In this document: piece after piece, positions 34,521 to 63,298 of the stretch | How positions within the stretch are numbered: the first letter of the stretch is position 1 | How the letters are laid out: each line of letters opens with the position of its first letter | NCBI GenBank assembly: GCA_030590485.1 | Contig: JAUUYL010000004.1 | Span: forward strand, 7,878 to 71,877 | Direction: 5' to 3' | Length of the DNA stretch: 64,000 nt | From: Lentisphaerota bacterium | GTDB lineage: Bacteria > Verrucomicrobiota > Kiritimatiellia > UBA8416 > JAUUYL01 | The notes under the pieces: generated by a model | Databases searched by the model: none | What the model saw: the letters and a program-made list of their open reading frames with translations, nothing else | What the model was told of the DNA's origin: nothing | Made by a program: the position numbers and the translations under genes

Positions 34521-34521
34521 T

Positions 34522-37292: not shown

Positions 37293-37316
37293 GGCTGTTT
37301 AAAAGCAATTAGAAAG

Positions 37317-38895: not shown

Positions 38896-38898
38896 ACG

Positions 38899-41938: not shown

Positions 41939-42002
41939 GCAAACTGAAATCGTTTTCAGTACAGCCGCCATGTAATGGCGGCTATACTTTTGGACAGCGC
42001 GA

Positions 42003-44333: not shown

Positions 44334-47300
44334 TTGGTTGAGAATAGTAAAAATGGTTCGGTACTCATTTTGGGTGCAGGTATCGCTGGAATACAGGCGG
44401 CGCTGGATCTTGCCGACTCCGGCTATAAGGTATACCTGGTCGAATCCAAAACCGCTATCGGCGGTCATATGGCACAGCTTGATAAGACATTCCCCACTAA
44501 CGACTGCGCAATGTGCACAATCTCACCTCGTCTCGTAACCGCTGGCCTGCATAGAAACATTGAGATTATCACAAACGCCGAACTGCAAGAACTCAAGGGT
44601 GAAGCTGGTAATTTCGAAGCAACAATACGTCTCAACCCTAATTTTGTAGATCTCGACAAATGTACAGGCTGCGGTCTCTGTGCAGAGGAATGTCCTATTA
44701 ATATCCCTGACGAATACAACCAGGGACTGAACAACAGAAAAGCCATTTACAAATTATACCCGCAAGCCGTACCAAACAAATTCACTATCAGCAAACTGGG
44801 CGAAGCACCATGCTACGACGCGTGCCCTCTTCACGGAGACCCCAGCGGCTATGTCGCACTGACCGCTGAAGGCCGCTATCAGGAAGCTCTGGATCTTGTC
44901 AGAGAAAAGAACCCCTTCCCCGCTATCTGCGGCAGAATATGTCAACATCCATGCGAAACAGAATGCAGCCGATGCAAAGTCGATGAGCCCGTTTCCATCG
45001 CATACATAAAACGATTTCTGGCTGACTGGGAAATGGGTCATGGCGAAGAGAAAACACCCGCCGCTGAAATAATTGAAAATGGAAAGAAAGTCGCCATCAT
45101 CGGGTCAGGTCCCGCAGGACTTACCGCCGCACGCGAGCTTAGGAAAATGGGCTATTCTCCCGCAATTTACGAGTCTCGCGCAAAAGCCGGCGGCATGATG
45201 ACTCTCGGCATCCCCTCGTACCGCCTACCGCACGAGATTATAGAAAAGGAAATAAAAGACATTACCGATCTGGGTGTAACCCTTAAAATCAATTCACCGA
45301 TTAATTCCGAAGAAGACATCGAAGCTCTCTTTAAGGATGGATGCGAAGCCGTCTTCCTCAGTGTAGGCTCCCACCAAAGCAGAAGCATGGATATTGAGGG
45401 CGAAGACCTTGAAAACGTTACGGACGGTGTTACCTTTCTGCGCGAACTAAGCCTTGGATCAATAACTTCAGTCAAAGAACGAGTTATTGTTGTAGGAGGA
45501 GGCAACGTAGCACTCGACTGCGCGCGCTCCGCCCTGCGTCTTGGTGCCAAGGCTGTAAATATCGTTTGCCTGGAAGCTTACGAGAACATGCCTGCGCACC
45601 GCAACGAGATTGACTGGGCGGAAGAAGAAGGCATCGTCGTCAACGCCGCAAAGGCGACACAAAGCATTACAGATAAAAACAACGCCTTTGCCGGGTTGGC
45701 ATTGATGGATGTAAAGAAAATGGCGTTCGTAGAAGGAAAACTCGAGCTAGAGACTGAGCCGGGTTCAGAATCAACAATTGAAGCCGACCAGATGATTGTA
45801 GCCATCGGCCAGGCACCTGACCTCTACTTCCTCTCCGATGACAGCAAAATCAACACCACCCCACGGGGTACTCTGGATGTGGACAGCAAAAGCTTTATGA
45901 CATCCTGGAAAGGCGTATTCTCAGGAGGCGATGTAGTGCGTGGAGCGGCAAGCGTTATCGAGGCCGTTGCAGACGGCAGAAATGCAGCCATGTCGATAGA
46001 CGCCTATATCAAGGGCGAAGAATTTACTCCAGACGCAAGCAATCAGCCGATTGTAACGCTATCAGACGAAGAAATTAGAGCAAAACTGAAAAGTAAGGAA
46101 ATACAAAAGACGCCTCGTCACATCATGCCAGAACGCCCAGTCGAAGAACGTATTTCAAACTTTAGCGAAGTAGATCTCGGGTTGAGCGAGGAAGCCGCAA
46201 AGAAGGAAGCCGAACGCTGTCTCTATTGCTCTATCTGCTCCAACTGCCGAAGATGCGAAACAGTATGCGAAGCTAACGCGCTCATCTATGATGACGTTCC
46301 TAAGAACAGAACAATCAATCCGGGCGCAGTTATCCTCGCCCCTGGTTTCGAACTGTTTGATTCGGGCAAAAAAGGAGAATTTGGCTACAAACGATTTCCA
46401 AATGTCATTTCCGCTCTGGATTATGAACGCATACTCAGTGCGTCCGGCCCTACACTTGGTCATATACAGAGAATCTCCGACAGCAAGACGCCTCGGAACA
46501 TAGCCTTCATTCAGTGTGTGGGATCAAGAGACGAAGACAACCCATATTGTTCATCCGTTTGCTGCACCTTTGCAATAAAACAATCCATCATTACAAGAGA
46601 GCATGCGAAGGACACACAATGCACCATTTTCGCGATGGACATCCGTGCCTTTGGTAAGGGCTTTGATGAGTATTTCGAGCGTGCAAAAAACAACTACGGC
46701 GTCAAAGTTGTATACACACGCCCATCGTCGATTAAACAGGATTTCAAAACCCACAATCTTCAGCTGCAATTCACCGAAGATGGTCAAGACTGGATCGAAC
46801 AGGAATTCGATCTGGTCGTTCTCTCAGCTGGCTTATGCCAGAATGACAAGGCCAAAGAAATCGCAAATGTCTGTGAAATCGACCTGAACGACTACTCGTT
46901 CGCCAATTCACCCGTCTTTTCGCCAACATCGACCAACCGCGAAGGTGTATATCTCGCCGGAACATTTGAGGAGCCGAAAGACATTCCGGAATCAGTGACC
47001 CACGCAAGTGCAGCCGCAGCGAGGGCAATGGAACTGCTTGCCGATGTCAGAGGCACTGAAGTAGAAGAAAAAGTTTATCCAAAAGAAAGAGACGTATCAC
47101 AGGAAGAACAACGCATAGGCGTCTTTGTATGTCACTGTGGATCAAACATCGAGGGATTCATCAGTTGCAAAGAAGTAGCCGAGTACGCTCAAAGCCTCAA
47201 AAACGTAGTATACACAGACCATCTTCTCTACAGTTGCTCTCCAGACGGACTGCAAACCATTAAAGATATGGTGATAGAGCATAACCTCAACCGTGTGGTT

Positions 47301-48794
47301 GTAGCATCCTGCACACCGCGCACACACGAGCCACTATTTCAAGAAAACATCAGAGAAGCAGGACTAAACCCCTACCTCTTCGAGATGGCCAACATACGCG
47401 ACCAATGCACATGGGTACATGCAGATATGGGCGAAGCGACCCAAGAAAAGGCCAATGACCTAGTGCGAATGGCCGTCGGCAGAGCACGAACGATTGAATC
47501 GCTATCTTCAAAGACGTATGTACCAAAGCGCAGCGCGCTGGTCGTCGGAGGAGGAATCTCAGGCATGAGCTCCGCACTCTCCGTAGCCAACCAGGGCCAC
47601 GAAGTATACCTGGTCGAAAAATCGGACAAACTTGGCGGCAGTGCATTGAAGATCAAGAAAACCATAGACGGCAGCAACCCAGCCGAACTAGTACAAAGTC
47701 TCGAGGAAAGCGTGCTTGAACATGACAAGATCACGGTAATGATGAACGCTGAAGTCGCAGAAACCAGCGGTTTCATCGGCGATTTCCACACTCAGATCAA
47801 AAGCAAAGCAAAAGACGTATCCTTTGAACATGGCGCAACAATTATTGCGACAGGCGCGGAGGAGCTCAAGCCTTCCGAATATCTTTTCGGAGAGAACGAG
47901 CATATTGTAACTCAACAGACTTTCGAAGAAACGATCGAAAACAGCCCCGAAACCATTAAGAGCATTAAAGAAATTGTGATGATCCAATGTGTCGGCTCTA
48001 GAGAGCCTGATAGAATGGTCTGCAGCAGAGTGTGCTGTACCGAGGCCATAAAAAACGCCATTGCTGTAAAAAATGCTAATCCTGAAGCATCTGTTTCCAT
48101 TCTTTATCGAGACATACGCACATATGGGTTCCTTGAGAAATACTACACCGAAGCACGCGAGATGGGCATCTTGTTTTTTAGGTACGATCTGGAAAACAAG
48201 CCTGAGGTGACTTCCGGCAATGACGGTAAACTCAGAGTACGGACAAAGGATCTCAATTCCGGCCTCGAAATAAGTTTCGACCCTGACTGCCTGGTTTTAA
48301 GCGCAGGAATGGTGACCCCTGAGGGGACGCAAAAGGTAGGAACAGCCTTCAAAATCCCATTAAACCTCGAAGGCTTTTTCCAAGAGGCCCACATGAAACT
48401 GCGTCCTGTAGACTTTGCCTCTGACGGCATATTCCTTTGCGGCACCTGCCACAGCCCTAAGTTCATCAGAGAAAGCATTATACAGGCGCAAGGTGCGGCA
48501 GCTAGAGCGATTGGCATACTTTCAAAACCAGAAATGGAAATAAGCTGCATCATTTCAAAGGTTGACGAGGACAAGTGCGTTGCCTGCCTTACCTGCGTAA
48601 GGACATGTCCATACGATGTCCCAAAGATAAATAAGGATGGTATTGCCGAGATTGAACCTGCGATGTGCCATGGATGCGGTATCTGCGCTGCCGAATGCCC
48701 GGCAAAAGCCATAAGCATGATGCATTACAAGGATAGACAGATTATTTCCAAGACCCAGGCCCTGTACAACGAGAAAGGCGAGCTGCAAAAATAA
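44334..48794 (+). CDS. hdrL: Giant HdrA-like flavoprotein with an inserted GltD-like NAD(P)H-binding module and a second HdrA-like module (HdrL-type), 1486 aa
   Basis: HdrA N-terminus VLILGAGIAGIQAALDLADSGYKVYLVE...CTGCGLCAEECP. A GltD-like insert follows (PFPAICGRICQHPCETEC; VAIIGSGPAGLTAARE; VIVVGGGNVALDCARSA). HdrA continues (FIQCVGSRDEDNPYCSSVCC). A second module follows (ALVVGGGISGMSSAL...IQCVGSREPDRMVCSRVCC) and a C-terminal 2x[4Fe-4S] CVACLTCVRTCP...CHGCGICAAECP. It starts at TTG. Confidence 0.75.
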   Translation: MVENSKNGSVLILGAGIAGIQAALDLADSGYKVYLVESKTAIGGHMAQLDKTFPTNDCAMCTISPRLVTAGLHRNIEIITNAELQELKGEAGNFEATIRLNPNFVDLDKCTGCGLCAEECPINIPDEYNQGLNNRKAIYKLYPQAVPNKFTISKLGEAPCYDACPLHGDPSGYVALTAEGRYQEALDLVREKNPFPAICGRICQHPCETECSRCKVDEPVSIAYIKRFLADWEMGHGEEKTPAAEIIENGKKVAIIGSGPAGLTAARELRKMGYSPAIYESRAKAGGMMTLGIPSYRLPHEIIEKEIKDITDLGVTLKINSPINSEEDIEALFKDGCEAVFLSVGSHQSRSMDIEGEDLENVTDGVTFLRELSLGSITSVKERVIVVGGGNVALDCARSALRLGAKAVNIVCLEAYENMPAHRNEIDWAEEEGIVVNAAKATQSITDKNNAFAGLALMDVKKMAFVEGKLELETEPGSESTIEADQMIVAIGQAPDLYFLSDDSKINTTPRGTLDVDSKSFMTSWKGVFSGGDVVRGAASVIEAVADGRNAAMSIDAYIKGEEFTPDASNQPIVTLSDEEIRAKLKSKEIQKTPRHIMPERPVEERISNFSEVDLGLSEEAAKKEAERCLYCSICSNCRRCETVCEANALIYDDVPKNRTINPGAVILAPGFELFDSGKKGEFGYKRFPNVISALDYERILSASGPTLGHIQRISDSKTPRNIAFIQCVGSRDEDNPYCSSVCCTFAIKQSIITREHAKDTQCTIFAMDIRAFGKGFDEYFERAKNNYGVKVVYTRPSSIKQDFKTHNLQLQFTEDGQDWIEQEFDLVVLSAGLCQNDKAKEIANVCEIDLNDYSFANSPVFSPTSTNREGVYLAGTFEEPKDIPESVTHASAAAARAMELLADVRGTEVEEKVYPKERDVSQEEQRIGVFVCHCGSNIEGFISCKEVAEYAQSLKNVVYTDHLLYSCSPDGLQTIKDMVIEHNLNRVVVASCTPRTHEPLFQENIREAGLNPYLFEMANIRDQCTWVHADMGEATQEKANDLVRMAVGRARTIESLSSKTYVPKRSALVVGGGISGMSSALSVANQGHEVYLVEKSDKLGGSALKIKKTIDGSNPAELVQSLEESVLEHDKITVMMNAEVAETSGFIGDFHTQIKSKAKDVSFEHGATIIATGAEELKPSEYLFGENEHIVTQQTFEETIENSPETIKSIKEIVMIQCVGSREPDRMVCSRVCCTEAIKNAIAVKNANPEASVSILYRDIRTYGFLEKYYTEAREMGILFFRYDLENKPEVTSGNDGKLRVRTKDLNSGLEISFDPDCLVLSAGMVTPEGTQKVGTAFKIPLNLEGFFQEAHMKLRPVDFASDGIFLCGTCHSPKFIRESIIQAQGAAARAIGILSKPEMEISCIISKVDEDKCVACLTCVRTCPYDVPKINKDGIAEIEPAMCHGCGICAAECPAKAISMMHYKDRQIISKTQALYNEKGELQK

Positions 48795-49240
48795 TGAATA
48801 ACTTTGAACCGAAAATAACTGCGTTTTGCTGCACCTTCTGCGCGTTCAGTGCGGCGGACCTTGCGGGATCAATGCGATTGCAGTACCCACCGAACGTAAG
48901 GATTGTAAAACTGCCATGCACAGGCAAAGTAGATGTCCTTTACATCCTCAAGGCCTTTGAAGACGGCGCAGATGGTGTGTTTGTTGCAGGTTGCCTCGAG
49001 GGCGAGTGTCATTACCTTGAGGGTAATTTCCGAGCAAGAAAACGGGTCGAATATGCGAAAATGCTTCTTGAGGAAGTTGGGATCGAAGGTGAGCGCGTCG
49101 AAATGTACAACCTATCCTCGGCTATGGGTGCCCGGTTCGCTGAAATCGTTGAGGAGATGACGGCAAAAATCAAGGAACTTGGACCGAGAGGAAATGGCTA
49201 TAGGTCAGAGGAAGAATGTGAAGAGGGAAAACGTGACTGA
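48794..49240 (+). CDS. mvhD: MvhD-like [2Fe-2S] electron-transfer protein
   Basis: KITAFCCTFCAFSAADLAG...VKLPCTGKVD...FVAGCLEGECHY is the MvhD signature. Confidence 0.8.
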   Translation: MNNFEPKITAFCCTFCAFSAADLAGSMRLQYPPNVRIVKLPCTGKVDVLYILKAFEDGADGVFVAGCLEGECHYLEGNFRARKRVEYAKMLLEEVGIEGERVEMYNLSSAMGARFAEIVEEMTAKIKELGPRGNGYRSEEECEEGKRD

Positions 49241-49288
49241 TGGGCTTAGGGGGAAGAGACTTGAAGCATAGATACTTGTGGATTTAAG

Positions 49289-49843
49289 ATGAGAATTGAA
49301 GAGAACAACGTAAATATAGACAGTTCCTTCGCGCTGGAAGTGCAGAAGCGAAGCGGAGAGAATGTCTTTTTGTGTTACCAATGCAGAAAATGTGCTTCTG
49401 GTTGTCCGCTAAGAGAAATGATGGACAGCAGTCCCACCGAATTTATGCGCTTTGTTCAGCTTGGCATGAAAGATAAGGCAATGACAGACAGTACAGTTTG
49501 GCGTTGCACATCCTGCCAGACCTGCACTACGCGCTGTCCGCAAGGTATCGACATAGCACATGTCATCGACACAGTTAAGATGATGGCACAGGACGAGAGA
49601 ATCAAGGTAGACAGCAAGAATGTAAAAGCTTTTAACGTCATATGGATGAATATGCTCAAACATATGGGCAGGATTTACGAACTCGGACTTGTCGCCCTTC
49701 TTAACATGGCCATGAAACAACCGCTCAAGGGCGCTGAACTGGCCGTCGAAATGGTTAAGAAAGGTAAGCTGAAGTTCATACCAACGATTAAACGTTCTGC
49801 ATCGATGCGAAGAATGTTTAAAAGAGCTAAGGGGTTAAAATAA
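49289..49843 (+). CDS. hdrC: Heterodisulfide reductase subunit C-like (2x[4Fe-4S])
   Basis: CYQCRKCASGCP and CTSCQTCTTRCP. Confidence 0.8.
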   Translation: MRIEENNVNIDSSFALEVQKRSGENVFLCYQCRKCASGCPLREMMDSSPTEFMRFVQLGMKDKAMTDSTVWRCTSCQTCTTRCPQGIDIAHVIDTVKMMAQDERIKVDSKNVKAFNVIWMNMLKHMGRIYELGLVALLNMAMKQPLKGAELAVEMVKKGKLKFIPTIKRSASMRRMFKRAKGLK

Positions 49844-50703
49844 TGAAAGTATCATATTATCCGGGTTGCTCACTGCATTCAACAGCAATAGAATACGATA
49901 TGTCTACCAGAAAAGTCCTCGAGGCACTTGGTGTTGAATATGTTGAGGTGAAAGACTGGATATGCTGCGGGTCAACACCGGCGCATCAAGCTGATGAACT
50001 GATGTCGGTGGCTCTACCAGTCAAAAACCTGGCAATAATGGCTGAGAACGATAATCTTACTGATATGTGCGTACCATGTGCGTCCTGCTATTCACGCCTG
50101 AGAGTTGCGCAGGAAAAGATGAAAAACCCCGAAACACGGAAGAAGGTCGAAGATGTCATAGAGGCACCCTACCCCGAAAACGTAAATGTCATGCATGCTC
50201 TCGACCTTATAATCGAGAAAGTTGGCATCCCCGCTATCAAAGAAAAGATTATCAGCAAGCTGAACGGCATGAAGGTTGTCTGCTATTATGGATGCCTGAT
50301 GACTCGCCCTCCAAAAGCTACGGGCAAGAAGGAGTGCGAGAACCCGATGGAGATGGAAGAGCTAATGGAAGAGCTTGGTGCAAAGCCCCTGGACTGGAAT
50401 ATGAAAACGTTCTGCTGCGGAGCGGCATCCGCATTGACCCAGACGGAAATAGTTCTCGATCTCACCAGAGAAATCCTGGATGACGCTGTTAGCGTAGGCG
50501 CAGAAGCCATTGTCGTAGGATGCCCCCTCTGTCACGCCAACACCGACGGTCGCCAGAAGGAGATCAACGCTAAATATAAAACAGACTTCGATATACCCGT
50601 ATTTTATTTTACCGAACTGCTCGGGCTCTGCCTCGGCATCGACCCTAAAGAACTTGGCATAGACAAACACCTGACCGAGGCCATGGATTTGATTAAGAAA
50701 TAA
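49843..50703 (+). CDS. hdrB: Heterodisulfide reductase subunit B-like (two CCG domains)
   Basis: Cys-rich CCG motifs WICCGSTPA and FCCGAAS plus CPLCHAN. Confidence 0.85.
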   Translation: MKVSYYPGCSLHSTAIEYDMSTRKVLEALGVEYVEVKDWICCGSTPAHQADELMSVALPVKNLAIMAENDNLTDMCVPCASCYSRLRVAQEKMKNPETRKKVEDVIEAPYPENVNVMHALDLIIEKVGIPAIKEKIISKLNGMKVVCYYGCLMTRPPKATGKKECENPMEMEELMEELGAKPLDWNMKTFCCGAASALTQTEIVLDLTREILDDAVSVGAEAIVVGCPLCHANTDGRQKEINAKYKTDFDIPVFYFTELLGLCLGIDPKELGIDKHLTEAMDLIKK

Positions 50704-50773
50704 CGGAGAATAAACACAATGAAGAAATATTATACGCTTCACGTTTCACGTTTCACGGGGCAAAGGGGATCTC

Positions 50774-51442
50774 ATGATCGTAGGTGACAGAAAACCATTA
50801 GAAGAAATCCTTGAATCGATTAAGGACTTCAAGAAGATACTGCTACTTGGATGCGGCGGATGCGTTACTATCTGCTTTTCCGGCGGCGAAAAGGCTGCAG
50901 GCCTGCTTGCGTCTCAGATATCCATTGCACGAAAAGATGCGGGCAATCCGATAGAAATCGACGAAGCAACTCCTACACGAGTCTGCGAGCATGAATTCAT
51001 CGATGAGCTGAAGGATAAAATTGATTCGGTAGATGCTGTACTTTCCTTATCTTGCGGTGTCGGAGTACAAACGCTAGCCGAACAATACGAAGACAAGATC
51101 ATCATCCCCGCGCTTAACACTACGTTTATGGGTTATCCTGTTGAGCATGCTGTATGGGAAGAAAGATGTGCCGGATGCGGTGACTGCGTTCTTGGATGGA
51201 CTGGTGGACTTTGCCCAATTTCCAGATGCGCAAAGAAACTCCTGAACGGCCCATGCGGCGGGTCGGTAGACGGCGTATGCGAAGTCGATTCAGAGAAGGA
51301 ATGCATATGGCACTCGATTTATGATCGTCTAAAGAGAATTGGCAAACTCGAGAACCTTGAAAAGGTTAGAGATCCTAAAGACTGGCGAACAAGCACAAAC
51401 GCGGGCCAGAGGAAATCTGAATTTAAGGAAGCACAACTATGA
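50774..51442 (+). CDS. metV: MetV-like Cys-rich subunit of methylene-THF reductase (MTHFR C-terminal-domain family)
   Basis: ~220-aa Cys-rich protein (CGGCVTIC, CAGCGDC, CPISRC, CGGSVDGVC). It overlaps the metF start by 4 nt. Confidence 0.6.
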   Translation: MIVGDRKPLEEILESIKDFKKILLLGCGGCVTICFSGGEKAAGLLASQISIARKDAGNPIEIDEATPTRVCEHEFIDELKDKIDSVDAVLSLSCGVGVQTLAEQYEDKIIIPALNTTFMGYPVEHAVWEERCAGCGDCVLGWTGGLCPISRCAKKLLNGPCGGSVDGVCEVDSEKECIWHSIYDRLKRIGKLENLEKVRDPKDWRTSTNAGQRKSEFKEAQL

Positions 51443-52353
51443 AATCTGACAGCAAGCTGGAAAAAGTATTAAGCGAGGGTAAGTTTGGTGTCACATGTGA
51501 GCTTGGGCCACCCCAGCACGCAGACCCGGATAATATAAGCAAGAAAGCGGAGCACTTAAAAGGCAACGCTGATGCTGTTAATATTACAGATAATCAGACT
51601 GCAATTGTAAGAATGTCCAGCATTGCGGCATCAAAACTTGCCATTGATGCAGGACTGGAACCGGTGGCGCAGATGGTTTGTAGAGATAGAAACCGCATTG
51701 CTATGCAAAGTGACATTCTGGGCGCTGCCGCGCTGGGAATAAAGAACATCCTTCTGCTTTCAGGTGACCACCAGACTTTTGGCAACCATCCAGAGGCAAG
51801 CAATGTCTACGATTTGGACTCCATCAACCTAATTCAAATGGTAAAGAACATGAGGGACGAAAAGATATTCCAGTCAGGAGACCCGATTAAAGAACATGAA
51901 CCACGAATGTTTATCGGCGCTGTAGAAAATCCATTCGCAGACCCCTTCGAGTTCAGAGTCGCACGTCTAGCCAAGAAGGCCAATGCCGGTGCAGACTTCA
52001 TCCAGACCCAGTGCATCTTTGATATGAATAGATTCAAAGAGTGGATGAAGATGGTTGTAGATCGCGGAATTCACGAAAGACTCTATATTCTGGCAGGAAT
52101 CACACCTGTACGGTCTCACAAAGCACTTGTTTACATGAACAAGAACGTTGCGGGGATTACGGTTCCAGAAGAACTCATCAAACGGATGGAAGACGCTGAC
52201 GAACCGAAGGAAGAAGGCGTTAAGGTAGCCATCGAGCAGATTCAGGAAATCCAGGCAATTGAAGGCGTGGCAGGATTGCATTTAATGCCCATCGGCTGGG
52301 AATCCATCACATCTGTTATCATGGAAAAGACAGGACTCCTGCCAAGACCATAG
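51439..52353 (+). CDS. metF: 5,10-methylenetetrahydrofolate reductase
   Basis: MetF TIM-barrel family: GKFGVTCELGPP...NITDN...LSGDH. Confidence 0.85.
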   Translation: MKSDSKLEKVLSEGKFGVTCELGPPQHADPDNISKKAEHLKGNADAVNITDNQTAIVRMSSIAASKLAIDAGLEPVAQMVCRDRNRIAMQSDILGAAALGIKNILLLSGDHQTFGNHPEASNVYDLDSINLIQMVKNMRDEKIFQSGDPIKEHEPRMFIGAVENPFADPFEFRVARLAKKANAGADFIQTQCIFDMNRFKEWMKMVVDRGIHERLYILAGITPVRSHKALVYMNKNVAGITVPEELIKRMEDADEPKEEGVKVAIEQIQEIQAIEGVAGLHLMPIGWESITSVIMEKTGLLPRP

Positions 52354-55177: not shown

Positions 55178-55224
55178 AGTTGACAAATGACATCTATCGT
55201 GGTATCTCATTCAACCTTAATCAT

Positions 55225-55300
55225 GGGGGTGTAGCTCAGTTGGTAGAGTACTTGAATGGCATTCAAGGAGTCGGGGGTTCGAATCCCCCTACCTCCACCA
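55225..55300 (+). tRNA. tRNA-Ala (anticodon GGC)
   Basis: It folds as a manual cloverleaf: acceptor GGGGGTG/TACCTCC with G3:U70, anticodon loop ATGGCAT, T-arm GGGGGTTCGAATCCCCC, encoded CCA. Confidence 0.85.
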
Positions 55301-55332
55301 AGAACACAAGTCCTGCGAAGGATTCTTCCAGC

Positions 55333-55602
55333 AAGCTTTTCTTCACATACATCATTCAAAGCGCAACCACAGGCCAATTTTATGTCGGTTCATGCTCAAA
55401 TATCCTCAAAAGGTTTGATAACCATCAATCAGGCTACTGTAAAGCAACAAGAGGTCGAGGGCCATGGTGGATGCCCTATTATGAAATTTACACATCACGT
55501 TCAGAGGCAATGAAGCGTGAATACGAAATCAAAAGAAAAAAAAGCAGTAAGCACATTAAAAGAATAATTTATGATGCATACCCGTTTATTGAACTCTATT
55601 AA
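55333..55602 (+). CDS. GIY-YIG nuclease-family protein (YhbQ-like) with no canonical start codon
   Basis: FFTYIIQSATTGQFYVGSCSNILKRFDNHQSG...R...EYEIK is the GIY-YIG motif. No ATG/GTG/TTG lies between the tRNA and the motif. The ORF is open in-frame back through the tRNA to TTG at 55180. Confidence 0.55.
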   Translation, partial: KLFFTYIIQSATTGQFYVGSCSNILKRFDNHQSGYCKATRGRGPWWMPYYEIYTSRSEAMKREYEIKRKKSSKHIKRIIYDAYPFIELY

Positions 55603-55626: not shown

Positions 55627-57186
55627 TTACTCGCCACCTCTAGTCTTCATGAATGCGGCCCACAGATCCGAACGTATATAGAGAGCCAGCGGGACTTCAT
55701 GGCGGAGACCCCAGTATTCTGACTGATACGCATCTTCCGTCCTGCCGCGCAATGCGTCCTGCATTTCAATGGACGCTACTATGATTGGTGGTTTTACTTC
55801 GTCGGGAAGCAGCGATACATCATAACTGTAACCAACATTCTCATACCCCCTCAAGTACCAGGGGAGAGGCCAGGCATCCTGCGGATTTGTGATAACCATT
55901 ATTCTCATGGCTTTGCCATCATCTGAGACCGCAGCGATATCATCCACCCTCTTGACCAAATTAAGAAAGTCGCAGACTGTATGCGAATATGCATACGGGT
56001 TGCGGGCATCAGCACTATATCTGAAATTAGCCATAAAGGTCTGGACCGAGAGCGTAAACGCCATATAGCTCACAATCAGACACCATAATATCTGCAATGG
56101 AAGATTACCCAGCATATTGAACATGCCTGCCGCACCAATGCCCGCCAACAATATCCATCCGTGCAGAAACGACATCATACACCAAGGCGTCTTATACGGT
56201 ATCAGAGAATACACCAACGTCATCAGGAGGGTGTAAAAAAGAAGAAAAGATCTCAAGCCTACATCGACCTTATCAATACAGCGGGCCTTAATGGCGATCA
56301 TGACCACACCTGCCAGCCCCAGGAGCAGTATCCCAGCCTCGCTCCATTCAAGCCCGCCGGATTTGTGACAAACGAGCATCTGTAGATAATAATAGAAGGG
56401 ATGTACATGATCTGTGTTTGCTCCTGCCCCCCTCTCAAAATACACAAGATATGTCGCAATTGAATCCCACACTCCAGACGGGTTCGTAAAGAACGACGAG
56501 AAGAGGACTGCAGATACGATCATCGATGTGAGCGACATATAAAGAACATGTATTGGCAGTACGATAAATTGCACCCGCTTAAACTTCAGGCCAGTGCGCC
56601 AAATGACGGTCAATAGAAATGCTACAAGGATAACCCCGTACGCGATTATACAAGTCTCTTTAGTGGCATGCATAAGCCCGAGAAAGACACCTGCCGCCAC
56701 AGCCCACGGTGCCGTCTCTCTCCTGAAATATTGCCACCCGCAAGCTATAGCGCCAAAAGTAAAAAAGACAAGGAGCGTTTCCTGTATGTAAAATCGACTG
56801 TAATAAACCATGCAGGTTGAAACAGCAGTAAAGAGTGCTGCAACAAGTGTCGCCCCCCAGCCCAACCCTGTCCGAATAAGAAGAATGAGCAAAATCAGAC
56901 CTACCCCGAAAAGAACAGGTACCATCCTGAATACGGTGATGTTTGTTTCTGAGAAGTCCCTGCCAGCTATCAATGCAGCCAGAGGCATCGAGAGATAATA
57001 CAATGTAGGACCATGATGCTCCTGAGGGTCGTACTCGTATTCACCCTTCTCCAAAAGGATACCCGCACGCACCATCTGATTGGCCTCATCGTTGTGCAAC
57101 ACCCTCTTCTCAAGCTGCACAGTCCTGAAAGCCAATGCCAAGACCACTAACGCTGCAAACAACACCCAGTTGACGACCTTCTTCAT
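55627..57186 (-). CDS. Integral-membrane glycosyltransferase, family 39/83-like (ArnT/PMT fold)
   Basis: N-terminal loop motif HNDEAN, then DPQEHHGPTLYY, and >10 TM helices. Start at MKKVVNWVLF. Confidence 0.6.
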   Translation of the reverse strand: MKKVVNWVLFAALVVLALAFRTVQLEKRVLHNDEANQMVRAGILLEKGEYEYDPQEHHGPTLYYLSMPLAALIAGRDFSETNITVFRMVPVLFGVGLILLILLIRTGLGWGATLVAALFTAVSTCMVYYSRFYIQETLLVFFTFGAIACGWQYFRRETAPWAVAAGVFLGLMHATKETCIIAYGVILVAFLLTVIWRTGLKFKRVQFIVLPIHVLYMSLTSMIVSAVLFSSFFTNPSGVWDSIATYLVYFERGAGANTDHVHPFYYYLQMLVCHKSGGLEWSEAGILLLGLAGVVMIAIKARCIDKVDVGLRSFLLFYTLLMTLVYSLIPYKTPWCMMSFLHGWILLAGIGAAGMFNMLGNLPLQILWCLIVSYMAFTLSVQTFMANFRYSADARNPYAYSHTVCDFLNLVKRVDDIAAVSDDGKAMRIMVITNPQDAWPLPWYLRGYENVGYSYDVSLLPDEVKPPIIVASIEMQDALRGRTEDAYQSEYWGLRHEVPLALYIRSDLWAAFMKTRGGE

Positions 57187-57300
57187 AAACGTATCATAGT
57201 TGATTCGGGCAACAAGAAAAATACAAAAACACAAAAAAGGCCGACAACCGCCTTCGGCCGGAGAGATTAGAGATTGGAGAGAAGAGAAGAGAGAAAACCG

Positions 57301-57370
57301 ATATTACTGCCGGTCTTGTAGTCCGTGGTCCGTAGTGTAGTCCACGGAAAATAATCTCCGATTATTTTCC
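57301..57370 (-). terminator. Tandem hairpins at the 3' end of the discoidin-protein gene, overlapping its stop
   Basis: ggaaaataatc-tcc-gattattttcc is an 11-bp perfect stem. ccgtgg...ccacgg forms a second stem. On the minus transcript, U-rich and GA-rich (agagaagagaagagag) sequence follows. Confidence 0.4.
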
Positions 57371-58018
57371 GTATACCTCCACTTCAATATAATGGTTCAT
57401 CTCGCTGGATGTACTGCCATTGCTATACAAGCGGACATACTGCGCCTTCTCGCCTTTTACAGGAATAGGCCTGCCGAAATTCGTCTCGATCCACTCCTTA
57501 TCCTTACCAATGCCCAGCCCTATGGAGTTGTCATGGTCGTTGTTAAAGACTGTACGGACGTTCGTAATAAAATCAGAATCATCTGCGACCTGGACGACAA
57601 CATCCCTGTAAACGCGTGCCTGGCTATGAAAATGCCATAAAACAATAGCGTAGATCGTATAAGCTTCTTCCAGATCGATCTGAACATGCTGCTTCATCGG
57701 GCCAAGCTCGACATAGCTGCCGTCCGAGCCCTCCTTGTCACCATCAGTAATAAGCTCCAACTCGCCTATAATCGGCATATTATCACTGCCTGTCACATCT
57801 TTATCCATAGCAACGTTCTTGACCCCTTTTGGCACCATCAATGGAGAACGTTTACCTGAATTACCTTTTCTTGCCGACTCCAGATTATCTGTTTTTATAG
57901 GCTTTGGCGTCCCGACAAACATTGCCTGAGGCAGTTCCAACTTCAAAGGAACACGGTCCTGCGCCATACATACAGCCGCAGTAGTCATCAGCATTACTAT
58001 CATCATATATTTCTTCAT
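57362..58018 (-). CDS. Secreted discoidin (F5/8 type C)-domain protein
   Basis: Signal MKKYMMIVMLMTTAAVCMAQD. C-terminal discoidin pattern QIDL...YTIYAIVLWHF...RVYRDVVVQVADDSDF...AQYVRLYSNG. Confidence 0.55.
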   Translation of the reverse strand: MKKYMMIVMLMTTAAVCMAQDRVPLKLELPQAMFVGTPKPIKTDNLESARKGNSGKRSPLMVPKGVKNVAMDKDVTGSDNMPIIGELELITDGDKEGSDGSYVELGPMKQHVQIDLEEAYTIYAIVLWHFHSQARVYRDVVVQVADDSDFITNVRTVFNNDHDNSIGLGIGKDKEWIETNFGRPIPVKGEKAQYVRLYSNGSTSSEMNHYIEVEVYGK

Positions 58019-58099
58019 ATTTCTCCTCATCATTAATACAGAAAGTAAATCACTCAATCGATTGGATATACTATAGAATACATCCTTGTATTTCAAGTC

Positions 58100-58897
58100 T
58101 CAGAATGACAAAAAATCTCCTTTTTCATTGAGCAAATGAGCATAAATACCGTCATGAGCAAGACAAAACGCTTCAACAGCTTCAGTACTCATCACCATAA
58201 ATGCAGTAGAAAGCGCGTCGGCAACCGCACCGGACGGACATATTGCCCATGCTTTCTCATGCCCTGCCGCGTTATCGCCTGTCCTTGGGTCTATTACATG
58301 CTCACCCTGGACATCCTTGCCTGATGCACTAAGCGCTTGGTCTCGCAAGCATACAGGTTCGCCGTTAACACCAATCTTCCACTCTTCACCTTCTCCGGAC
58401 CCAACGCAGAGCACGGTACTCGGCCCCGCCGCTACCAAAAAGTCTTTAAGATCCCAGTCATTGAGAATCTCTGCAGCCAGATCCAATGCATAACCCTTAC
58501 CGATACCACCAAGGTCGAGAGATAGAGAATGGTTGATGGTGGCTGTCAGATTATCAGGGTCAAGGATAAGATGCTCCAGTCCCTGCCCCTTGGAAATATC
58601 AAAAGCCCCTGCTGTCTCCTTATGAACCCACATTGCCGAAAGCAGGCAATCCATAGTCTCGGGGGTAATGAAAACCGATTCACCAGGCTTAAGCACGGCG
58701 ATTCTCCCGACATCACTGTACTCTATGAACTTGCTGAGTTTCTCTTCAAGATGATCTATCTCACGGAAAACCGCGCCGGACACCTTCCTCGCGTAATCCT
58801 CAGCGCATCCATAAATAGCCAGTTCGTATGGCGCATCCATTGCATCGTGATAAAAAGTGTACAGTTCCTCAGTCATAAATAATTTAGATTTGGTCAT
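58100..58897 (-). CDS. apbE: FAD:protein FMN transferase (ApbE family)
   Basis: The GGIGKGYALD motif (DLGGIGKGYALDLAAE) is typical of ApbE/Ftp. Confidence 0.8.
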   Translation of the reverse strand: MTKSKLFMTEELYTFYHDAMDAPYELAIYGCAEDYARKVSGAVFREIDHLEEKLSKFIEYSDVGRIAVLKPGESVFITPETMDCLLSAMWVHKETAGAFDISKGQGLEHLILDPDNLTATINHSLSLDLGGIGKGYALDLAAEILNDWDLKDFLVAAGPSTVLCVGSGEGEEWKIGVNGEPVCLRDQALSASGKDVQGEHVIDPRTGDNAAGHEKAWAICPSGAVADALSTAFMVMSTEAVEAFCLAHDGIYAHLLNEKGDFLSF

Positions 58898-58922
58898 GTG
58901 ATGCGGCTCGCAGATTGTAAAT

Positions 58923-61886
58923 TTATTTCTTCCGCTTCACAGTGTAAACAACTGCAGCTATCAGCGTCGCAGCCCCAGCATAACGATGTATCAGGATCAG
59001 CGAGTGCTGACAATGCGAAGAAACAATCGGAACCATCGAAGCTAACATAGACATCACAAGAACTATACCGCAAACAACCACCACCCAGAAACATATCTTC
59101 TGAGCAAACGAATACTTGTCAGCCTCATCACTACTGGTAAGCTTGCAGGAATCAGACCTCATAACCGACAGCACAGCAAGGCACAAGGCGTACAGAGCGC
59201 CAAACACAACATGTGCCAGAAGACCATACCCAGAGATAGTCCGGCCAATACAGGCCGCTGTGCAAAAACCAGTAATCGTGAGTATAATCGCACTAAGACA
59301 CCCTATCTTCGCTGCTGCTCCATCAATCAATGGAAACTGGAATGTGCTCGCAACCTTCTTCAAGCCTAACAAAGCATAAAGCAGGGCAACCAATGCCGCT
59401 ATACCAGCCATACCCAGCAGGAACAGTTTCAACAGAGGTCTGACAATGAACGTCAAACCGAAGAGTCGATGATATCCACCAGATATATCCATATAATCAC
59501 TCATTTTGCCAACGGTAACCTTATCTGTCCTCAGCGCCCCTTGAGGTATCACTGAAGCAAAAAAGAAATCAGAATCAGCACTATGACAATCAGTACATTT
59601 ATCGGAACCCAGAGCCTGGGATGCCGAACGTACATCATGAGCAATCGGCCAGGTGACAGGCGCCGCATCTTTGTGCTCCTCAGCCTTTAGTCCGCCTTTG
59701 CCGTCATCACTAAACATCTTACCACGACTCACATAGACATGACCGTCCCCAAGTCTACCGAGAACTATTGCAACCTGGTTCTCTGTGAAGACCACTTCGT
59801 CACCGCCAACTGTATCGACTATCAATTTTTCAGCCTCCGGCGACACAAACGGCATGAACACACCATCTTTGAGCCACCCCCAATTGGAGCCCTTGGATGG
59901 GCCAACTTCACTCGGCTCAACAAGCAGCCTCTTTGCGACATCCTTGTCAAAGGTGTTTCTATATGCCTTGTTGCCGAATATTTCCAGCAGATTGACTTTT
60001 TTCTCCGCAGATGACTGTGCACGCATAAGCAGCTTTAACTCATAAAGCTTTGGTGTCTTCTTTTTAGAAGGCGTAATCTGCTTCCTATCAACATTATTGA
60101 ATATTTTCTGACTTGTCCCCTGGACCTCTGCCGTAACGTTCAACTTCGTCGCAAGAACCTTCACTGCAGCCTTGGTGACTGCGGCATCTTTTATAAGAGT
60201 ATCAGCCTCCTCTTTGGGCACAAGTTCATATTCAACATTAACCAGTCTGTGCAAAATGCCATCAAGTTTCCATGCCGGCTCAGCCCCGGCGGGTGCCGCA
60301 GGCTTGAGCGCCTCTATTACTGCCTGCAAATGGTTCTGATCGGCCTCACCAAGCCCGTAAAAAGCATATTCCTCGCTGGCATCATACTCAAGAGTTAGAG
60401 ACTCTATCCCCTTCTCGATGATATAGCCAAAGACACGTCCTGCCTTCGGCGCCTCACCCTTGTAATCAAGTATATCCAGTCCACCATCAAAGTTGCGGAC
60501 ATAAACCTTGCCGCCGGACACATAAACAGGCTGTCCATAAGTATCGCCATCAGCATTCTTTACGCCGCCCAAAGCCCCCAGAATGTTGGCTGCAACTGAC
60601 CCTGGGTCAACAATCTCTCCAGCAATATCCATGACATCTTCAGCCTTAAGCGGCGTCAGTTCATCTCCCTCCCGCTTAGCCCAGAATGACGGCCACATAA
60701 TACGTGATGGTGCAATCTTGCCATCAGAACCTTTCACAAACACAGGTTCGAGAATAACAGGTGCTTCCGTAAACCACTGTGCAATGCCGTGAATTCCAAG
60801 TCTGTTGATTTTAGCAGTCCTGACGACCTGCAACTTCCCGTCATCAGAAATCACAGACCCTGAATGACACGTCGTACAGGCAAGCTTCTCCAGATGAACA
60901 GGAGGAAGACCCTTATGCTCTGGGTTCGGTGCGCCGTAAGTACCATCTTCATGACATCCCTCGCAGGAATACATTCCAGCGACACCACGATCGATCTTAT
61001 GGTCTAACCCGTTACGGTGACATTTGACACAGCTCATTCCTGAAGCACTGTGAATATCTCCTGTCACCTCTTTCTTCTCCTTATGCACCTGAGCAACTGA
61101 ATGACATTGCAGGCAACGAGCATCAGACGGCTTGCCAATATCCAGAAGCGCGCGATGCTTACTATCGAAAAGGCTTTTCTTGTACAATACAGATGGCGGT
61201 GCACTGAAGACCATGTCATCAGGATCATATCCATCAGAAGGCACCCAGGAATCAGGCAGCCTTTCAGCAACGCCACTTATTTCGCCAAGCCCTGATGCGG
61301 CTGTAGCCGCCCAACGGAAATTCTCGCGAGCCACCTGCTTGACCCATTCGGTCGGATCCTGACATTTGGCGCCATTATGACAGGCCATGCAGTTAATCTC
61401 CAGATCACCTGACACCGCCCAGCGCGGATTTGCACCAAGTTCAGGACGCTTGTTTTCGCCAGGCCCACCGCCCGGCATATGACGCCCGAAATTCATAATA
61501 AATGACCAGTCTGTGAGACCCAAATCGGAAGGAGACTTCAGACCCGAGGACGAACGAAGCGAGAGAGGTATCTGCGTGCCTGTCTTCTCATCAAGAAGAA
61601 CCCATGGTTCGCTGGCTCTGCCCTCCAAATCACCCTCTGAACTGAAATGCCAGCCATGTCCGATCTTTTTGTAATCATGACACTCCCCGCAAGTCGTCTT
61701 GGCAGAAAACGGCTTAGGCACCTTTTCCACAGGCAGGATCTTTAGATCATTCTCATCCTTCAGCTGAACTTTGTGAACAGGTATTGTCTGACTACCATCC
61801 CATGGCACATTCGCCTGAGCTGTTCTGGACGAGATAACAACCCCCAAAAGAAGCAGGAAACTCAGTTTAGTGTATATTGACTTCAA
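58923..61886 (-). CDS. Heptaheme c-type cytochrome fused to a C-terminal 5-TM cytochrome-b-like membrane domain
   Basis: Signal peptide. 7 CxxCH motifs: CGECH, CMACH, CLQCH, CVKCH, CEGCH, CTTCH, CTDCH. The C-terminal ~180 aa holds 5 hydrophobic helices with conserved His residues. Confidence 0.8.
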   Translation of the reverse strand: MKSIYTKLSFLLLLGVVISSRTAQANVPWDGSQTIPVHKVQLKDENDLKILPVEKVPKPFSAKTTCGECHDYKKIGHGWHFSSEGDLEGRASEPWVLLDEKTGTQIPLSLRSSSGLKSPSDLGLTDWSFIMNFGRHMPGGGPGENKRPELGANPRWAVSGDLEINCMACHNGAKCQDPTEWVKQVARENFRWAATAASGLGEISGVAERLPDSWVPSDGYDPDDMVFSAPPSVLYKKSLFDSKHRALLDIGKPSDARCLQCHSVAQVHKEKKEVTGDIHSASGMSCVKCHRNGLDHKIDRGVAGMYSCEGCHEDGTYGAPNPEHKGLPPVHLEKLACTTCHSGSVISDDGKLQVVRTAKINRLGIHGIAQWFTEAPVILEPVFVKGSDGKIAPSRIMWPSFWAKREGDELTPLKAEDVMDIAGEIVDPGSVAANILGALGGVKNADGDTYGQPVYVSGGKVYVRNFDGGLDILDYKGEAPKAGRVFGYIIEKGIESLTLEYDASEEYAFYGLGEADQNHLQAVIEALKPAAPAGAEPAWKLDGILHRLVNVEYELVPKEEADTLIKDAAVTKAAVKVLATKLNVTAEVQGTSQKIFNNVDRKQITPSKKKTPKLYELKLLMRAQSSAEKKVNLLEIFGNKAYRNTFDKDVAKRLLVEPSEVGPSKGSNWGWLKDGVFMPFVSPEAEKLIVDTVGGDEVVFTENQVAIVLGRLGDGHVYVSRGKMFSDDGKGGLKAEEHKDAAPVTWPIAHDVRSASQALGSDKCTDCHSADSDFFFASVIPQGALRTDKVTVGKMSDYMDISGGYHRLFGLTFIVRPLLKLFLLGMAGIAALVALLYALLGLKKVASTFQFPLIDGAAAKIGCLSAIILTITGFCTAACIGRTISGYGLLAHVVFGALYALCLAVLSVMRSDSCKLTSSDEADKYSFAQKICFWVVVVCGIVLVMSMLASMVPIVSSHCQHSLILIHRYAGAATLIAAVVYTVKRKK

Positions 61887-61948: not shown

Positions 61949-63298
61949 TCATACCACAAAATCGCTTTTCTTAAACTCGATTTTCTTGTTTGTTCCTATA
62001 GCTCTATTCACTGCAAGAACGGCCACCGCTGTCGCATAACCCATCTCTGCCGGGCAATTCAGCGTGCATTGACCGCGAATAGCGTCAAAGAAATTCTCCA
62101 GGTGCGGCTGATGCGGAAGTTTTGCCAACTCGATTGGAAGCGGCCACTGGGGCATTCCGGGGCTTTCCCTTGCATCGAGCTTTACATTCTTGGTCTTCAC
62201 TTTGACCATGCTCTTGCCTTCAGGCTTAAGAAGACCTTCCTGAACCATGACATTCCAGTCCGGAGCATGCTTTTCACGCTCTATGGTGTTACCCCTTTGA
62301 GCAACTTCCGAAATGAGTAATGTCCCGTTCACACCCATAAATGCTTCCGAGTTGCCACCGTGACTGCTGGTAGTAAGCGTTTCGTAAAACGCCCTGGACA
62401 CACCATGCTTTGTCTCGTACTCATATATGCACAGAGCGTTGTCATACCACTCATGATGAGTGTGATAATCAGTCCCGCCCGATGCGATCACCGACTTGGG
62501 CGTAGTATGAAAAACCCACTCGAATATATCGATCTGATGAGAGCCCAGATCCACAATAGGCCCGCCACCGTATTTCTTGTACATACGCCAGTTGAGAAAC
62601 TGTTGCATTGATGCATAGCCGTACTTTGCGAGAATATCAGGCGGAATAACATCCCTGAACGCACATCCAATATCCTGAGCAGCCGAGACCGCCCTGTTCC
62701 ACTGAGCGTTAGCATGAGTGACCTGGCCCAGTATATTAGACTCATGAACAAGCTTATCAATAGCATGAATATAGCGAGGATTACTTCTGCGCTGGTGCCC
62801 GATTTGAAGCAACTTCTTCGTACGCCGTGCGGCCAGAACCATCTGCTTCGCCTTTTCGAGAGAATTCGACATCTCTTTCTCACTGTAAACATGATGCCCC
62901 GCCTCCATCGCAGCAATAGAATGCTCTGCATGCAACCAGTCAGGCGTAGCCACTATCACCGCGTCCAAGTCCTTTTCATTCGCAAGCATTTCCTGATAAT
63001 CAATATACTCGTTTGGCTCGTGTTTATATGTCTTAAGGTAATCAACCGCTACCTTCCTGTTCTTGTCCCATATATCACATACTGCTTTAAACCTGATTCC
63101 GGGAATAGATAGGCATGAATTGATCAGAGCCTTCTTGCCCTGCTGACCGACACCTATGATGGCAACATTCAGATCATCGGTCTTCTTTACCGGCGCCGCT
63201 ACTGTAGCTAAATCTTGCGCTAATGCACGCTGAGCCATGGCAATACCAGCTCCCGCAACACTAACGGACTTTACAAATTCTCTTCTGCTAATCTGCAT
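61949..63298 (-). CDS. Tat-exported Gfo/Idh/MocA-family oxidoreductase
   Basis: Twin-arginine signal MQISRREFVKSVSVAGAGIAMAQRALA. Rossmann motif LNVAIIGVGQQGK. GFOR-like size. Confidence 0.8.
   Translation of the reverse strand: MQISRREFVKSVSVAGAGIAMAQRALAQDLATVAAPVKKTDDLNVAIIGVGQQGKKALINSCLSIPGIRFKAVCDIWDKNRKVAVDYLKTYKHEPNEYIDYQEMLANEKDLDAVIVATPDWLHAEHSIAAMEAGHHVYSEKEMSNSLEKAKQMVLAARRTKKLLQIGHQRRSNPRYIHAIDKLVHESNILGQVTHANAQWNRAVSAAQDIGCAFRDVIPPDILAKYGYASMQQFLNWRMYKKYGGGPIVDLGSHQIDIFEWVFHTTPKSVIASGGTDYHTHHEWYDNALCIYEYETKHGVSRAFYETLTTSSHGGNSEAFMGVNGTLLISEVAQRGNTIEREKHAPDWNVMVQEGLLKPEGKSMVKVKTKNVKLDARESPGMPQWPLPIELAKLPHQPHLENFFDAIRGQCTLNCPAEMGYATAVAVLAVNRAIGTNKKIEFKKSDFVV

Follow-up and report, generated by a model that had tools for sequence, protein, structure and literature searches.

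Two kinds of described system bear on the gene cluster presented here. In the first, sugars are oxidised outside the cytoplasm: the Bacteroides cluster BT2156-BT2160 and LacABC convert glycosides in the periplasm to 3-keto-glycosides, which DUF1080 proteins then hydrolyse; LacABC and ThuAB are described as cytochrome c-dependent dehydrogenases, and for BT2158, a Gfo-type disaccharide 3-dehydrogenase exported by twin-arginine translocation (Tat), the electron acceptor is unidentified, another sugar having been proposed (Liu et al. 2021, PMC8121099). The second comprises membrane cytochromes connected to the quinone pool. CbcL of Geobacter sulfurreducens, a quinol oxidase in extracellular electron transfer, has nine c hemes, six transmembrane (TM) helices and two putative b hemes (PMC6295460), and FdnI, the cytochrome b556 subunit of Escherichia coli formate dehydrogenase-N (Fdh-N; 1KQF chain C), is a four-helix module fed by a periplasmic dehydrogenase. 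Here we examine a locus with likenesses to both, in a 64,000-nucleotide stretch of a Lentisphaerota bacterium genome (assembly GCA_030590485.1, contig JAUUYL010000004.1, positions 7,878 to 71,877), hereafter the window. A run of minus-strand genes in the window encodes a Gfo/Idh/MocA oxidoreductase (GFO), a heptaheme cytochrome c joined to a putative cytochrome b module, an ApbE-family protein, a discoidin-like secreted protein (DISC) and an Agl23/PMT_2-like membrane protein. From an analysis of sequences, alignments and predicted structures, we propose with a probability of roughly 0.55 that this cluster specifies a membrane-bound electron-acceptor complex for periplasmic sugar oxidation, which would pass electrons to quinone. 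The features on which the argument draws are as follows, in window coordinates.

61949-63298, minus strand: Gfo/Idh/MocA oxidoreductase, 449 aa, predicted to be exported by Tat, the proposed electron donor (Pfam, TAT_signal_seq, RREFVK, synteny).

58923-61886, minus strand: heptaheme cytochrome c with predicted cytochrome b module, 987 aa plus stop (open reading frame (ORF), motifs, homologue alignments, AlphaFold2 (AF2) model).

61812-61886, minus strand: predicted signal peptide of the cytochrome, aa 1-25, MKSIYTKLSFLLLLGVVISSRTAQA (sequence reading; the homologue consensus begins at the same place; model).

60852-61811, minus strand: heme-rich region, predicted to be periplasmic, aa 26-345, CxxCH motifs 1-6 (invariant motifs, Pfam).

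59652-60851, minus strand: heme-free beta/alpha insert, predicted to be periplasmic, aa 346-745 (confident model; length varies among homologues).

59352-59651, minus strand: heme 7 (H750, C764xxCH768) and TM helix 1, aa 746-845 (conserved block; the cytochrome's own C-terminal anchor).

58926-59351, minus strand: predicted FdnI/HydC-type cytochrome b module, aa 846-987, TM helices 2-5 (PF01292, FdnI profile match; H892/H967).

58100-58897, minus strand: ApbE-family protein, 265 aa, without signal peptide (Pfam ApbE, conserved motifs, synteny).

57362-58096, minus strand: CBM32/discoidin-like protein, predicted to be secreted, likely start at aa 27 = nt 58018 (Pfam, Foldseek, synteny).

55627-57234, minus strand: GT-C-like membrane protein, Agl23/TIGR03663, PMT_2 (TIGR03663, PMT_2).

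The cytochrome carries CxxCH motifs at residues 66, 166, 258, 286, 308, 337 and 764. Not one of the seven varies in either of two homologue alignments, of 30 and of 116 sequences, so they are not chance occurrences, and eight further histidines (H38, H80, H136, H279, H296, H324, H331 and H750), invariant or nearly so, would be enough to provide every one of the seven hemes with a distal ligand and thus with bis-His coordination. The corresponding database gene call (P0001, 961 aa; 100% identity, 97% coverage) is 26 residues shorter than the window ORF; judging from its length, and without an alignment, we infer that it starts 26 residues downstream so that its signal peptide is lost. In the homologue alignment the consensus reaches position 1, supporting the longer ORF with its TTG start, and the AF2 model computed from the 116-sequence alignment (pLDDT 89, pTM 0.81) opens with a helix at residues 2-22 followed by a low-confidence linker.

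Resemblance of the periplasmic part to characterised proteins is slight. Pfam and NCBIfam offer generic multi-heme models only, confined to residues 250-345 (Cytochrom_c3_2 and Cytochrome_C7 match residues 279-344, the former with 33.8 bits against a cut-off of 25), and profile comparison with PDB sequences yielded nothing beyond local resemblances to heme pairs of the NrfA kind. A Foldseek comparison of the cytochrome model with the PDB returned no match at E <= 0.001; the sole suggestive one was the hydrogenase cytochrome b HyaC, on the TM part (probability 0.51). The insert at residues 346-745 is modelled with high confidence and is 270-410 residues long in homologues, and it has no Pfam match even at E=10 and no significant Foldseek match in the PDB. 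Beyond it lies the most conserved C-terminal block (W746, H750, R753, C764, C767, H768, F809, F813, R816 and K820), retained in short and long forms alike, in which heme 7 precedes TM helix 1 by about 40 residues and would sit beside the membrane. The window protein, whose anchor is C-terminal, has no match to PF03264 (NapC/NirT/NrfH); precomputed ones exist for a few homologues.

Hydrophobic helices occur at about residues 806-840, 855-880, 884-908, 925-952 and 962-982, and comparison with relatives divides them between two units. About half of the 120 closest homologues stop after one TM helix, these split-form cytochromes ending after the block at residues 746-845; in loci with such a shortened cytochrome, a membrane protein of 160-240 aa, the product of the following gene, aligns with window residues 850-987. 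In a profile search of 81 loci, the module was a separate downstream gene in 49, fused in 23, cut by a contig end in 6 and not found in 2, and it is absent from only 2 of the 74 assessable loci. We read the window protein as a heptaheme cytochrome, anchored by a C-terminal helix of its own, that is fused to a small membrane subunit, and the existence of both split and fused forms argues that cytochrome and b module act together. An earlier note on this DNA had described a signal peptide, seven CxxCH motifs and a b-type-like membrane anchor in one polypeptide, and this description stands, the motifs being conserved throughout the 116 homologues; conservation of the fusion itself, which the note had proposed to check, extends to the 23 fused loci and is the minority state.

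The membrane module probably belongs to a recognisable family. Of 23 module sequences, 20 are picked up by PF01292 (Ni_hydr_CYTB) at E <= 1, the best at 5e-23, and the only solved protein found with the family profile is E. coli FdnI (1kqf_C, E=9e-7); TM helices 2-5 are predicted to form a diverged FdnI/HydC-type cytochrome b. H892 in TM3 aligns with H57 on TM2 of FdnI and H967 in TM5 with H155 on its TM4, each being kept in 65-70 of 72 modules, and by topology the two would constitute a ligand pair near the periplasmic face. The positions of the cytoplasmic-side ligands of FdnI, H18 on TM1 and H169 on TM4, are occupied by A and Y in the window protein, and H806 and H961 of the cytochrome vary among homologues. 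Because only the H892/H967 pair is conserved, the bundle can hold one b heme, near heme 7. What the earlier note had said of the C-terminal helices and their conserved histidines holds for the five helices and for this one pair, and fails for a second pair; the di-heme site that it had envisaged in the TM bundle, and with it a di-heme transmembrane wire, was rejected, as only two of the four FdnI-type histidines are conserved.

A few relatives depart from this pattern. All four FdnI histidines are kept in just 3 of the 72 modules, those of loci L010 (e.g. L010:3043-3762), L017 and L035, which also have a C-terminal 'WAxxHH' tail. These modules probably represent the ancestral di-heme state, and such relatives could run an FdnI-like electrogenic loop of which the mono-heme majority is incapable.

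The most constant partner of the cytochrome is the oxidoreductase encoded immediately upstream on the same strand, an orthologue of the window GFO occupying that position in 62 of 65 loci. Synteny counts, here and below, derive from ORF clustering of 80 related loci with a tblastn check, the denominators being the loci with enough flank; the clustering reached about 10 kb on each side of the cytochrome, and non-recurrent ORFs were left without annotation. The cytochrome-adjacent GFOs form one orthologous group with a median identity of 56% across phyla, in which the Rossmann GxGxxG and the catalytic DLGSHQID motif are retained, a twin-arginine motif is present in 44 of 54, and each locus has from one to four GFO paralogues. 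The window GFO matches the N- and C-terminal GFO_IDH_MocA domains of Pfam and, weakly, TAT_signal_seq, with the motif RREFVK; the solved proteins closest to it are DgpA, GFOR and a glucuronide 3-dehydrogenase, which puts it nearest to glycoside and C-glycoside 3-oxidoreductases and to GFOR. It is not an equivalog of BT2158 (NCBIfam BT_2158_fam, 94 bits against a cut-off of 750), so that its assignment is to the Gfo/Idh/MocA family level, with a Tat signal.

Genes of sugar metabolism recur around the cytochrome. DUF1080 (3-keto-disaccharide hydrolase) genes lie within 6 kb of it in 19 of 37 loci, ThuA and sugar isomerase genes are often near it in related loci, and a fragment of an FGGY kinase gene is found just upstream in the window. 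The locus of Verrucomicrobia bacterium S94 (CP036201.1) illustrates the arrangement: genes for a major facilitator superfamily (MFS) transporter, a GFO, a sugar isomerase (AP_endonuc_2) and a Tat-GFO are followed by those for ThuA, a HEAT protein, a GFO, the cytochrome, a 3-keto-disaccharide hydrolase, ApbE, an F5/8C (discoidin) protein and PMT_2, and then by a sugar transporter gene, xylA and xylB, with AraC regulators also in the vicinity. Within this locus (L081, 5523-8389) the ThuA-family protein and the HEAT-repeat protein, of 657 aa, are encoded between GFO paralogues just upstream of the cytochrome. The families surrounding the cytochrome are the same as those through which BT2156-BT2160 and LacABC accomplish the 3-keto pathway outlined above. 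As the acceptor for BT2158 is unidentified (PMC8121099), an acceptor of the cytochrome's kind corresponds to a recognised gap; the window cluster differs from that of Bacteroides BT2158 in encoding a dedicated heptaheme c/b membrane complex beside its GFO genes.

The cluster is widely dispersed. A relative of the cytochrome occurs in at least 591 species (one genome per species scanned), among Kiritimatiellia and other Verrucomicrobiota, Planctomycetota/Phycisphaerae, Aminicenantes (Acidobacteriota), Sumerlaeota, Hydrogenedentota and others, and an exhaustive profile search of 1.84 billion representatives resolved the family into 495 clusters at 50% identity (E <= 1e-30). The conserved order is [DUF1080] - GFO (1-4 copies) - cytochrome - (b module) - ApbE - DISC - GT-C-like - [GT2]. 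Downstream of the cytochrome, ApbE is encoded in 56 of 64 loci, DISC in 45 of 57, the GT-C-like protein in 40 of 54 and a Dpm1-like GT2 in 12 of 47. The earlier note's placement of ApbE as the next gene, and of a secreted discoidin-domain gene after it, thus describes a genuine linkage that persists across phyla; the points at which that note had thought its reading might fail turned out otherwise, with heme motifs and one histidine pair conserved in homologues and ApbE linked in related genomes. Among the clustered ORFs of the 80 loci, which cover about 10 kb to either side, no recurrent family was found beyond GFO, ApbE, DISC, GT-C, DUF1080 and GT2, so that a partner in the form of an outer-membrane porin, an outer-membrane cytochrome or a terminal reductase is not apparent. 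Scans for promoters and terminators gave background levels only. Relatives of the cytochrome bear the database names 'hypothetical' or 'cytochrome c3 family'. We found no description of the cytochrome cluster in the searchable literature, where two ApbE surveys are silent on it and no paper pairs 'Gfo Idh MocA' with a multi-heme term; a link from exported sugar dehydrogenases through a heptaheme cytochrome to the quinone pool is not described there.

Comparison with the membrane cytochromes introduced above defines what is particular to this one. With CbcL it shares a single polypeptide in which an N-terminal periplasmic multi-heme c region is followed by a C-terminal HydC/FdnI-like b domain (PMC6295460), with a quinone-pool link that is proposed for the present protein; it differs in that its c hemes number seven, distributed along some 770 aa and interrupted by a heme-free insert of 400 aa, in having five TM helices and one conserved b-heme site, in its sugar dehydrogenase neighbours, and in that its relatives are mostly split into two genes. 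The published CbcL homologues of Planctomycetota-Verrucomicrobiota-Chlamydiota (PVC) bacteria, which pack 11 hemes into about 380 aa and have six TM helices, are likewise set apart by heme number and spacing and by the number of TM helices. The periplasmic-side ligands align with those of FdnI, whereas the equivalents of H18 and H169 are lost in 69 of 72 b modules, including that of the window; because these cytoplasmic-side ligands are missing, no electrogenic loop of the Fdh-N kind, which crosses the membrane to a quinone site on the cytoplasmic side, can work in that form. The proposed donor also differs, being a chain of c hemes for the b module and an iron-sulfur subunit for FdnI. In contrast to porin-cytochrome conduits of the MtrCAB type, a linked outer-membrane beta-barrel and cytochrome are not among the families that recur within about 10 kb of the cytochrome.

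From these attributes we arrive at the following scheme. One or more Gfo/Idh/MocA enzymes would be exported folded through Tat, presumably with NAD bound as in GFOR, and would oxidise glycosides in the periplasm, probably to 3-keto-glycosides that DUF1080 hydrolases then cleave; the 3-keto product is considered likely because of the associated DUF1080, ThuA and isomerase genes. ApbE would supply a covalent flavin adapting two-electron hydride transfer to one-electron heme reduction. LacABC, for its part, is of the flavoprotein type with a small cytochrome c subunit. Electrons would enter the chain of seven low-spin bis-His c hemes, pass from heme 7 to a single b heme held between TM3 (H892) and TM5 (H967) near the periplasmic face, and proceed from there to a periplasmic-side site for (mena)quinone. 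With alcohol/ketone couples well below menaquinone in potential, sugar to quinone is the feasible direction, and these thermodynamics, together with the catabolic context, are the grounds for the direction that we favour. As a general description, the earlier note's periplasm-facing, quinone-linked redox module remains the best available. We see in the cluster a familiar principle, the connection of a periplasmic dehydrogenase with the quinone pool by way of cytochromes, in a form that we found nowhere described; this principle does not explain the signal-less ApbE, the highly conserved CBM32-like protein or the GT-C-like protein.

ApbE presents the sharpest difficulty. As an enzyme it appears competent: the Pfam ApbE match scores 120 bits against a cut-off of 25.6, the motifs GGIGKG, SxSG (SGSG), H-x-IDPRTG and ADALSTA are conserved in 51 orthologues, and matches to ApbE structures in the PDB have E values between 1.8e-13 and 1.7e-6, the nearest being TM1553/ApbE. 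It thus resembles the FAD:protein FMN transferases that serve NqrC, RnfG, NosR and other flavinylated extracytoplasmic proteins in fold, in catalytic and Mg/FAD motifs and in its location within an extracytoplasmic redox cluster; unlike them, it lacks a signal peptide or lipobox, and no acceptor motif is conserved in the proteins of its cluster. Orthologues start about 10 residues ahead of the first strand of the fold, and a lipobox was seen only in an unlinked Akkermansia ApbE copy (L078). Long ApbE ORFs, considered as possible fusion clues to a partner, proved to be over-extended calls in high-GC DNA. Cytosolic ApbEs that serve cytoplasmic fumarate reductases are known (PMC12052999), but not from a cluster whose other redox proteins are exported, as are all other redox components in the cluster of the window ApbE.

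The earlier note had looked to the vicinity, including the discoidin protein, for a flavinylation target, and none emerged: the window cytochrome, discoidin, GFO and GT-C proteins contain no [S/T]GA[S/T] acceptor, and a conserved D-x-x-[S/T]-G-A-[S/T] is present in no protein of the cluster. Two degenerate candidates were weighed and rejected. TAAS at residues 195-198 of the cytochrome came into consideration since a motif with a G-to-A change is still about 50% flavinylated; S198 is A in 26 of 116 homologues, and 'TAAA' is common in the loci. The loop TDGDKEGSDGS of the discoidin protein misfits the motif and looks instead like a Ca-binding loop. Because the Tat-GFO is the sole protein of the cluster that folds in the cytoplasm before export, it is a conceivable candidate for the substrate of ApbE or for a partner with which ApbE might hitch-hike.

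DISC and the GT-C-like protein pose a related question. DISC reaches the Pfam F5_F8_type_C_2 (PF22633) cut-off exactly, at 27.8 bits, and its model is a CBM32/discoidin beta-sandwich with 141 Foldseek matches in the PDB at E <= 0.001 (best CBM32 4zy9 and 4a6o, E ~1e-7). The database call (P0122, 218 aa) starts at M27 of the ORF, which is the conserved start. Across 40 orthologues drawn from different phyla, conservation reaches 90% or more at 73 positions, and its closest database relatives are 56-81% identical, the cytochrome (about 40-45%) and GFO being less conserved. Conserved features include an extended N-terminal LPKPMFVGTP, the motifs WHxHSQARVYRD, NNDHDN and NHYxEVEVYG, and a Ca-loop-like TDGDKEGxDGSYVE, which has low confidence in the model. 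So strong a constraint is suggestive of a subunit with a core structural or docking function, more than of a loose sugar-binding accessory. Searches for DISC fusions disclosed tandem discoidin duplications only. Planctomycetota-type proteins with tandem discoidin modules (P0123, P0127, P0131 and P0174) read NNDIDN in place of NNDHDN, so the histidine of that motif is not universally required. The GT-C-like protein matches TIGR03663 at 181 bits against a cut-off of 126, and also PMT_2.

Several of these observations weigh against an acceptor complex for sugar oxidation, and they are best taken together. Direct reduction of a heme by the hydride of enzyme-bound NAD(P)H is not possible, and the flavin adaptor that the scheme requires was not located: neither the window ApbE nor about 50 cluster-linked orthologues have a signal peptide or lipobox, which predicts a cytoplasmic enzyme, and flavinylation motifs occur in 4 of 114 cytochromes, 9 of 150 GFOs, 0 of 40 DISC, 1 of 43 GT-C and 3 of 53 DUF1080 proteins, never at a conserved position. 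The window b module itself scores 15.4 bits (E=0.017) against the PF01292 cut-off of 30.1, and a b heme on the periplasmic side alone leaves the quinone site unplaced. Finally, a simple catabolic model does not explain the steady presence of the GT-C-like protein or the very high conservation of the CBM32-like protein. In a more specific version of the scheme, NAD-bound GFOs exported by Tat would be re-oxidised by the heptaheme c/mono-heme b protein acting as quinone reductase, with a flavin from the signal-less ApbE at a non-canonical site. The flavin could be placed on the Tat substrate while this is still in the cytoplasm, or ApbE could itself hitch-hike through Tat with the GFO; a lipid-linked route by way of the GT-C-like protein, with the CBM32-like protein as carrier, would be another way. 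We regard this version as rather doubtful.

Other functions for the cluster have to be set beside periplasmic sugar oxidation. If GT2 made a polyprenyl-phosphate sugar, the GFO oxidised or epimerised a lipid-linked or envelope sugar (cf. DprE1) with electrons passing through the cytochrome to quinone, and the GT-C protein transferred the product, the CBM32-like protein binding the glycan, then the cluster would serve envelope biosynthesis or modification. Both glycosyltransferase-like proteins, at the frequencies of linkage given above, are better explained in this way, as is a CBM32-like protein conserved far above the needs of a catabolic accessory; but GT2 is found in only a quarter of the loci, and the one to four GFO paralogues accompanied by 3-keto-disaccharide hydrolases, ThuA, isomerase, MFS and sugar transporters, xylA/xylB and AraC form a catabolic pattern, and we consider an envelope function unlikely. 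The architecture of the cytochrome lends itself to a further interpretation, close to one that the earlier note had raised, in which electrons leave the quinone pool through the c/b cytochrome, as in CbcL, ImcH and CymA, for periplasmic or extracellular acceptors or a respiratory substrate. An N-terminal multi-heme c region with a C-terminal FdnI-like b domain is indeed the plan of CbcL (PMC6295460), a periplasmic-side b heme with a probable quinone site nearby is typical of quinol dehydrogenases, and many of the hosts are anaerobes. Against such an outward flow, the recurrent families of the 80 loci include no apparent outer-membrane porin, outer-membrane cytochrome or terminal reductase, the PVC proteins given as CbcL homologues are a different family with 11 dense hemes and six TM helices, and the constant neighbours of the cytochrome are sugar-oxidising and sugar-processing genes. 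Reduction of keto-sugars by menaquinol would, moreover, be endergonic. We therefore hold a quinol-oxidising conduit to be very unlikely, and for extracellular electron transfer in particular the sugar-catabolic context and the constant Tat-GFO, a gene lying beyond the segment that the earlier note had considered, favour periplasmic sugar oxidation instead.

That the heptaheme protein is itself an enzyme acting on a small inorganic substrate, in the manner of NrfA, octaheme tetrathionate reductase or HAO, appears extremely improbable. What points in this direction is weak: profile matches, local ones, to heme pairs of the NrfA type, and an NCBIfam match to the octaheme tetrathionate reductase family at E=0.08. 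All seven motifs are standard CxxCH, and eight conserved histidines are available as distal ligands, so that no heme with open coordination is evident, and no significant fold or profile match to catalytic multi-heme enzymes was obtained for the protein. A complex accepting electrons from periplasmic sugar dehydrogenases is accordingly the reading that we retain in what follows.

Other features of the window lie outside the cluster and are recorded here in their own right. At 44334-52353 (plus strand) a 1486-aa fused flavin/iron-sulfur oxidoreductase comprises two Pyr_redox_2/GltD-like units and ferredoxin domains; downstream of it are genes for a 4Fe-4S protein, an HdrB-like CCG-domain protein, a DUF5981/MetV-like protein and MetF (MTHFR), and the whole has the look of a methylene-tetrahydrofolate reductase cluster of the MetFV-Hdr type, as in acetogens, here in a bacterium of PVC type. 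A single 567-aa ORF at 21157-22860 (minus strand) joins a LacAB_rpiB ribose-5-phosphate isomerase B (aa 3-141) to a full serine hydroxymethyltransferase (aa 154-530). A nitrogen-assimilation island at 28776-44120 encodes two Amt transporters, an NrpR-like repressor (34719-35723), a sigma-54 activator with a GAF domain, glutamate dehydrogenase, glutamate-synthase-like subunits and a type III glutamine synthetase. A tRNA-Ala(GGC) gene lies at 55225-55300 (plus strand), overlapped by a 140-aa ORF (55180-55602) that partly translates the tRNA and whose C-terminal half looks by eye to be of GIY-YIG type.

Glycan degraders, PVC bacteria and Bacteroidota included, have an abundance of sugar dehydrogenases of the Gfo/Idh/MocA family that are exported through Tat. 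The cluster confronts students of such enzymes with a clean flavinylation puzzle, a conserved and apparently competent ApbE having neither an export signal nor a recognisable substrate; if a flavin at a non-canonical site were its solution, doubtful as we consider this, the cluster would bring to light a new way of attaching flavin and, with it, the acceptor that has been missing for periplasmic sugar dehydrogenases of the Gfo type. As cultured Pontiella strains are among the hosts, the idea is directly testable. Should the proposed acceptor function be true, the heme c/b partner would allow fermentative glycan degraders to route periplasmic sugar oxidation into a quinone-linked chain, and models of energy yield and carbon flow for glycan-degrading groups would change.

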